Below the pieces are notes generated by a model. The model saw only the letters and a program-made list of their open reading frames with translations. It made no database searches and was not told the DNA's origin. Below are positions 58,126 through 58,233 of a DNA stretch of 64,000 nucleotides, piece after piece; within the stretch, counting starts at the first letter, position 1; each line of letters begins with the position of its first letter. Source of the stretch: Camelus ferus (lineage: Eukaryota); NCBI RefSeq assembly GCF_009834535.1, contig NC_045696.1, positions 5,582,001-5,646,000 on the forward strand, written 5' to 3'. The translations under genes were made by a program, and so were the position numbers.

Positions 58126-58233
58126 TTTCTTCAACAAAGTCAGTACAAGCAGACAGGAGAAGTTTTTCCTTTACAAGTGTGAGACACCAGGAAACCCAAA
58201 AATCAGAAGATGTTCCATCTCTGGGCAACTAAG
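58126..58233 (+). CDS. LCA5L: LCA5L coding exon 5, carrying an apparent +1 frameshift and in-frame TAA at 58230-58232
   Basis: ctgttctgtag|TT ... AAG|gtacag; [33 protein letters not shown] then GGC AAC TAA. Length is 108 nt where a phase 1 to 0 exon needs 107. Confidence 0.9.

Follow-up and report, generated by a model that had tools for sequence, protein, structure and literature searches.

This analysis revealed that the LCA5L gene of Camelus ferus, as assembled, is interrupted by a single extra G in coding exon 5. The extra G is confirmed in the assembled sequence of the window (the whole stretch of 64,000 nucleotides that was analysed), a statement that covers the assembly letter and not the animal's own DNA. 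The gene in the window is a normal LCA5L orthologue, and its break is already known, having been flagged and corrected in RefSeq. The extra base is probably an error of one letter in the assembly consensus, GG having been written as GGG. The assembled animal would most likely possess an ordinary LCA5L of 669 amino acids, the additional letter having presumably arisen during sequencing or polishing.

Gene model and position of the extra base

The coding exons of LCA5L were set by tblastn of camelid lebercilin-like proteins, combined with GT-AG ends, which gave seven exons on the + strand (Table 1). The N-terminal coiled-coil Lebercilin domain (PF15619) is recognised in exon 2 with an E value of 5.5e-52 and occupies residues 139-331 in full-length camel proteins. 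The nearest named relatives among the mammal matches to this exon are lebercilin-like proteins. Both results agree with the gene identity proposed in an initial annotation of this DNA. The last exon is a 100% match to residues 429-669 of the C. ferus RefSeq model (tblastn).

Table 1. Coding features of LCA5L and of the neighbouring SH3BGR in the window.
Feature	Position	Strand	Basis
LCA5L coding exon 1, starts at ATG	46778..47099	+	tblastn, splice ends
LCA5L coding exon 2, most of Lebercilin domain PF15619	48938..49452	+	tblastn, splice ends, domain match
LCA5L coding exon 3	51399..51536	+	tblastn, splice ends
LCA5L coding exon 4	56531..56615	+	tblastn, splice ends
LCA5L coding exon 5; 108 nt as written, phase 0 needs 107	58126..58233	+	
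GGG run where GG is expected; extra base of the frameshift	58223..58225	+	single-base deletions, camelid orthologues
Premature TAA, as written, after residue 388	58230..58232	+	
LCA5L coding exon 6; ancestral frame open	58400..58517	+	tblastn, splice ends
LCA5L last coding exon; 241 codons open, conserved C-terminal blocks	60535..61259	+	
SH3BGR coding exon	31074-31030	-	open, phase 0, GT-AG ends
SH3BGR coding exon	24359-24174	-	open, phase 0, GT-AG ends
SH3BGR coding exon	15950-15870	-	open, phase 0, GT-AG ends
SH3BGR coding exon	3827-3735	-	open, phase 0, GT-AG ends

The seven exons sum to 2011 nt, i.e. 3 x 670 + 1, which is one nucleotide above 669 codons plus a stop. Positions 58215-58239 (+) read CCA TCT CTG GGC AAC TAA G/gtacag, and the frame as written ends L386 G387 N388 stop. 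The premature TAA ends 1 nt 5' of the exon 5/6 junction and 119 nt 5' of the last junction. The frameshift and the stop after 388 residues, both reported in the initial annotation, were recovered when the frame was recomputed from the seven exons. The accompanying statement that the remaining exons and splice sites are intact also held: all six donors are GT, all six internal acceptors are AG, and the 2011 nt contain a single lesion.

With regard to the position of the extra base, each of the 108 bases of exon 5 was deleted in turn, and 50 of these deletions reopen a frame of 669 amino acids. Only three of the 108, at 58223, 58224 and 58225 in the G run, restore the camelid sequence PSLATKGK. 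The same G-run deletions give the fewest differences from other camels, one against the Bactrian and two against the dromedary protein. The scan reproduces the earlier proposal that removing one G yields LATK and a 669-residue reading frame, and it places the extra base in the GGG run, as had been suggested.

Two further stretches of the locus resemble alternative exons. The initial annotation had missed an in-frame, open cassette exon of 147 nt with AG/GT ends at 47373-47519 (+), between coding exons 1 and 2. It matches the insert of the human X2 and donkey X2 isoforms at 61-71% identity (tblastn), is absent from the 669-residue form and from the camelid models seen, and leaves the frame unaffected. 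An upstream exon at 44931-45029 (+) matches the N-terminal extension of alpaca isoform X1, with 94% identity over 33 amino acids (tblastn).

SH3BGR (PF04908, E 1.3e-27) lies upstream of LCA5L on the - strand, head-to-head with it, as in human. The part of SH3BGR found in the window comprises four coding exons, together 405 nt.

The RefSeq model and residue 386

The top mammal match to exon 2 is XP_032319422.1 (LOW QUALITY PROTEIN: lebercilin-like protein, Camelus ferus; 669 aa), which is 100% identical over that exon. Removal of base 58220 or 58221 from the window reproduces this protein with no differences. The window therefore encodes the sequence behind the RefSeq model, which carries the same gene and the same break and has already been corrected here by one base. 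In the available text of PMC12906968 and of the Merfin preprint (10.1101/2021.07.16.452324), the NCBI label LOW QUALITY PROTEIN denotes a model that was corrected for indels, frameshifts or stops.

The corrected model reads S-W-A-T-K, with W386, whereas the camelid orthologues have L386, which identifies the extra base as a G. Given that only a deletion in the G run gives the camelid SLATK, the placement in the initial annotation is better than the one implied by the W386 of RefSeq. The pattern at the exon end was matched in 151 of 190 proteins, with L at this residue in 106, W in 42 and another residue in three. Besides the C. ferus model, the proteins with tryptophan include those of cattle, sheep, goat, deer, pig and many rodents. 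The W386 of the wild camel record probably derives from alignment to ruminant or pig proteins. By comparison with the camelid sequences, XP_032319422.1 probably has the wrong residue at position 386. We also considered W386 as a genuine residue of the wild camel and rejected it as less parsimonious given the camelid L386.

Comparison with other camelids and mammals

A comparison of orthologous exons across camelids and other artiodactyls had been proposed in the initial annotation as a check, and within the camelids it gave a uniform answer. The camelid cluster comprises nine models. Seven of the eight besides that of C. ferus span exon 5 (two dromedary, two Bactrian and three alpaca), and DVPSLATKG is present in all seven; the eighth, a short isoform from alpaca, terminates earlier. 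The lesion is thus not shared with related species. The genes of Camelus bactrianus, C. dromedarius and Vicugna pacos have the same exon structure as the window. Unlike the C. ferus model, they have exon 5 in frame (SLATK/G), and none of the eight other cluster members is labelled low quality.

When residue 386 is set aside, the C. ferus model differs from the Bactrian protein at one residue (586) and from the dromedary protein at two (465 and 586). Since residue 586 agrees with alpaca and residue 465 with Bactrian, no residue among the 669 is specific to the wild camel. On the 3' side of the break, the C. ferus model is 19 residues from alpaca, and the other two camels are 20. A unitary pseudogene should show several lesions or relaxed constraint; the gene in the window has one lesion in 2011 nt, no lineage-specific changes and intact splice sites.

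Residue 586, encoded near position 61004, is an alanine in the window and in alpaca and a glycine in the dromedary and Bactrian models. At this one site, introgression or an old polymorphism could account for the derived Gly586 that the two domestic species share.

Downstream of the break, the blocks at residues 511-540, 571-600 and 631-669 show a mean column agreement of 0.80-0.83 across 125 full-length proteins, 94 of which end in the conserved terminal motif. Judged from this alignment, the part of LCA5L downstream of the break appears to matter in mammals. Between these blocks, positions 60860-60990 (+) of the last exon are very GC-rich and encode a segment rich in Gly, Ala, Pro and Arg (residues 541-570). 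This segment is common to camelids and poorly conserved in other mammals (0.55), and it looks like a camelid-specific GC-biased change.

The low-quality label occurs on one of the best 120 of 552 matches and on one of the best 120 of 160, in lists where names were shortened. No further C. ferus model of LCA5L was present among the best 120 of the 552 matches (301-2000 aa, exon 2 query), among the best 120 of the 160 (367-1171 aa) or among all four matches of 30-366 aa. A 21-nt pattern of exon 5 common to both alleles had no match in JGI metagenome contigs.

Word shares in public sequencing runs

The region 57000-59500 was compared, through 253 sampled words, with 24 listed public runs. The 14 best DNA or unlabelled runs all share 0.98 of these words, and none reaches 0.99. 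These 14 runs come from two organisms and six studies, and for nine the listing indicates that the window DNA may derive from them. Two RNA runs with a share of 0.13 were left out of the evidence.

A share of 0.98 corresponds to four to six missing sampled words. An allele with GG would lack 29 of the 2471 31-mers of the window, or 3.0 sampled words on average. With random sampling, a single G indel would give a share of 0.98 with P=0.32, 0.99 with P=0.47 and 1.00 with P=0.19; the indel together with one further difference would give 0.98 with P=0.46. The plateau fits a window that differs from every listed animal at one or two places whose positions the shares do not give. It is not tied to 58223-58225, as the missing words may stem from another variant or from the index.

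Origin of the extra base

The initial annotation had offered three readings of the break: a recent loss-of-function allele, incipient pseudogenisation and a homopolymer assembly error. The last of these is the best supported; pseudogenisation is unsupported, as neither a further lesion nor a residue change specific to the lineage is present and three other camelid species have an intact gene. The gradings given here and below are matters of judgement and were not computed. The change is a one-base insertion in a homopolymer, it is the sole lesion in the coding sequence, it is absent from close relatives, and annotation has corrected it. An assembly error is favoured by these features, by the RefSeq label and the agreement of the 669-residue model with the window minus one base, by the seven in-frame camelid models free of that label, by the lack of residue changes specific to the C. 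ferus lineage, and by the 14 runs that all remain at 0.98.

It is further favoured by the known rates of homopolymer indels and residual frameshifts in long-read assemblies. More than 70% of PacBio indel errors fell in homopolymers in six non-mammal genomes, according to the available part of PMC8574707. In the accessible text of the Merfin preprint (10.1101/2021.07.16.452324), frameshifts remain in up to about 3% of genes in polished long-read vertebrate assemblies, and improved polishing cut frameshifts by 19.5-49.6%. Such a proportion amounts to up to several hundred genes. As in the errors described in the consulted portions of these two sources, which NCBI Gnomon corrects, the window has an isolated single-base indel in a conserved gene with a low-quality label; it differs from them in that its run is short and in that error status is deduced from sequence comparison rather than from reads. 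Some findings count against an assembly error. G/C homopolymer errors are mostly deletions and not insertions (PMC8574707, same part of the text), and the run grows only from two to three. In addition, accurate human assemblies contain a median of 72 frameshifts each, of which 58 are supported by Illumina calls and hence real (PMC10172123, part of the text). The balance depends on the kind of assembly: in an older long-read assembly, errors would exceed real alleles several-fold, whereas in a highly accurate one most frameshifts would be real. The accession series of the window presumably dates to about 2020, which favours the former case. The four SH3BGR coding exons are clean and give no sign of a locally error-rich assembly, in a control too small to weigh.

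The main competitor of an assembly error is a genuine loss-of-function allele, rare or private and probably in the heterozygous state, which entered the consensus by chance; we regard it as a minority view, roughly a third as probable as an error. Polymerase slippage would have added a G to the GG run, and the transcript would be degraded by nonsense-mediated decay, as the initial annotation had predicted. This pathway acts on stops whose distance to the last exon junction downstream exceeds 50-55 nt, and the 119 nt found here lie beyond that limit. Any product that escaped would comprise 388 residues, with the whole Lebercilin domain retained and 281 residues lost at the C terminus. Heterozygous animals would probably be unaffected, the protein being supplied from the second allele. 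Mammalian assemblies commonly contain real frameshift alleles, as the human median cited above indicates, and a very young allele would likewise appear as a clean single insertion in a homopolymer, free of other decay. A private allele would produce the same plateau of 0.98 if none of the listed runs comes from its carrier. However, none of the nine possible source runs exceeds 0.98. A higher share would be expected of a carrier, except where the sampling caught few of the 29 affected 31-mers or the effect was masked by other differences. A report of a rare LCA5L allele was also not found among the literature matches listed. It is far less probable that, after wild camels diverged from the domestic Bactrian, the loss became fixed or frequent in their lineage, which would make the gene an incipient unitary pseudogene. 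The sole C. ferus model found among the matches listed does carry the break, and real camel-specific inactivations exist: 10 genes were kept from 58 RefSeq-corrected candidates in one screen (PMC12127551, part of the text). Those validated in it, such as TAS2R16, CES3, CPA3 and PLA2G2F, were likewise found as RefSeq-corrected frameshifts or stops, but they are common to the three Old World species, whereas the LCA5L break occurs in one model only. The same part of that source states that sequencing errors are the usual cause of RefSeq corrections. LCA5L does not occur in the consulted text or six text supplements of PMC12127551; since this screen kept genes broken in all three species, the absence does not bear on a loss in the wild camel alone. 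The lack of decay signs argues against pseudogenisation, although a very young allele would look identical. The rarity of the low-quality label among the best matches and the conservation of the C-terminal blocks also speak against a fixed loss. Moreover, both organisms plateau at 0.98, where a difference fixed between species would often be expected to set them apart, with rounding able to hide up to two words.

The base could also be real and harmless, with splicing that skirts the G run, for example through a cryptic donor after 58178 (AGT/GTGAGA); this we consider the most improbable of all. Joined to the normal acceptor of exon 6, this donor gives an open frame of 651 residues, and it is the most plausible site by eye. 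Thirteen neighbouring donor-acceptor pairs would keep the frame open, and the annotations of deer (392 aa) and oryx (399 aa) include short isoforms that end at the exon 5 junction. Rescue sites of this kind are used in no camelid model, however, and early stops result from skipping exon 5, 6, 5+6, 4+5 or 4-6 and from retention of intron 5. The 392-residue isoform X1 of deer was separately considered as an independent truncation and rejected, as the same species has an isoform of 670 residues.

Implications for the wild camel

The LCA5L protein is located at the basal body and the axoneme, and its expression is found chiefly in tissues that bear motile cilia or flagella; it has been proposed as a candidate for primary ciliary dyskinesia, a motile ciliopathy (PMC3555842, meeting abstract). 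Among the matches listed for LCA5L, lebercilin-like and C21orf13, the literature contained no loss in camels and no knockout or loss phenotype, and Lca5l figures in the available part of one paper only as an entry among cryptic exons (PMC6345566).

If the extra base is an error, as we consider probable, one G at 58223-58225 should be deleted from the reference, and residue 386 of the RefSeq protein should be L instead of W. A rare real allele would be one of the dozens of loss-of-function alleles present in each mammal, of mild interest in a population that is small and endangered. Wider importance would attach only to a loss that is common or fixed, given that LCA5L is a proposed motile-ciliopathy candidate for which no loss phenotype was found in the literature matches listed. 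In that very unlikely event, the wild camel would be a natural LCA5L null or a mutant with a 388-residue, coiled-coil-only protein. It would then test the need for LCA5L in sperm motility or airway clearance and would provide a marker of genetic load in an endangered species.
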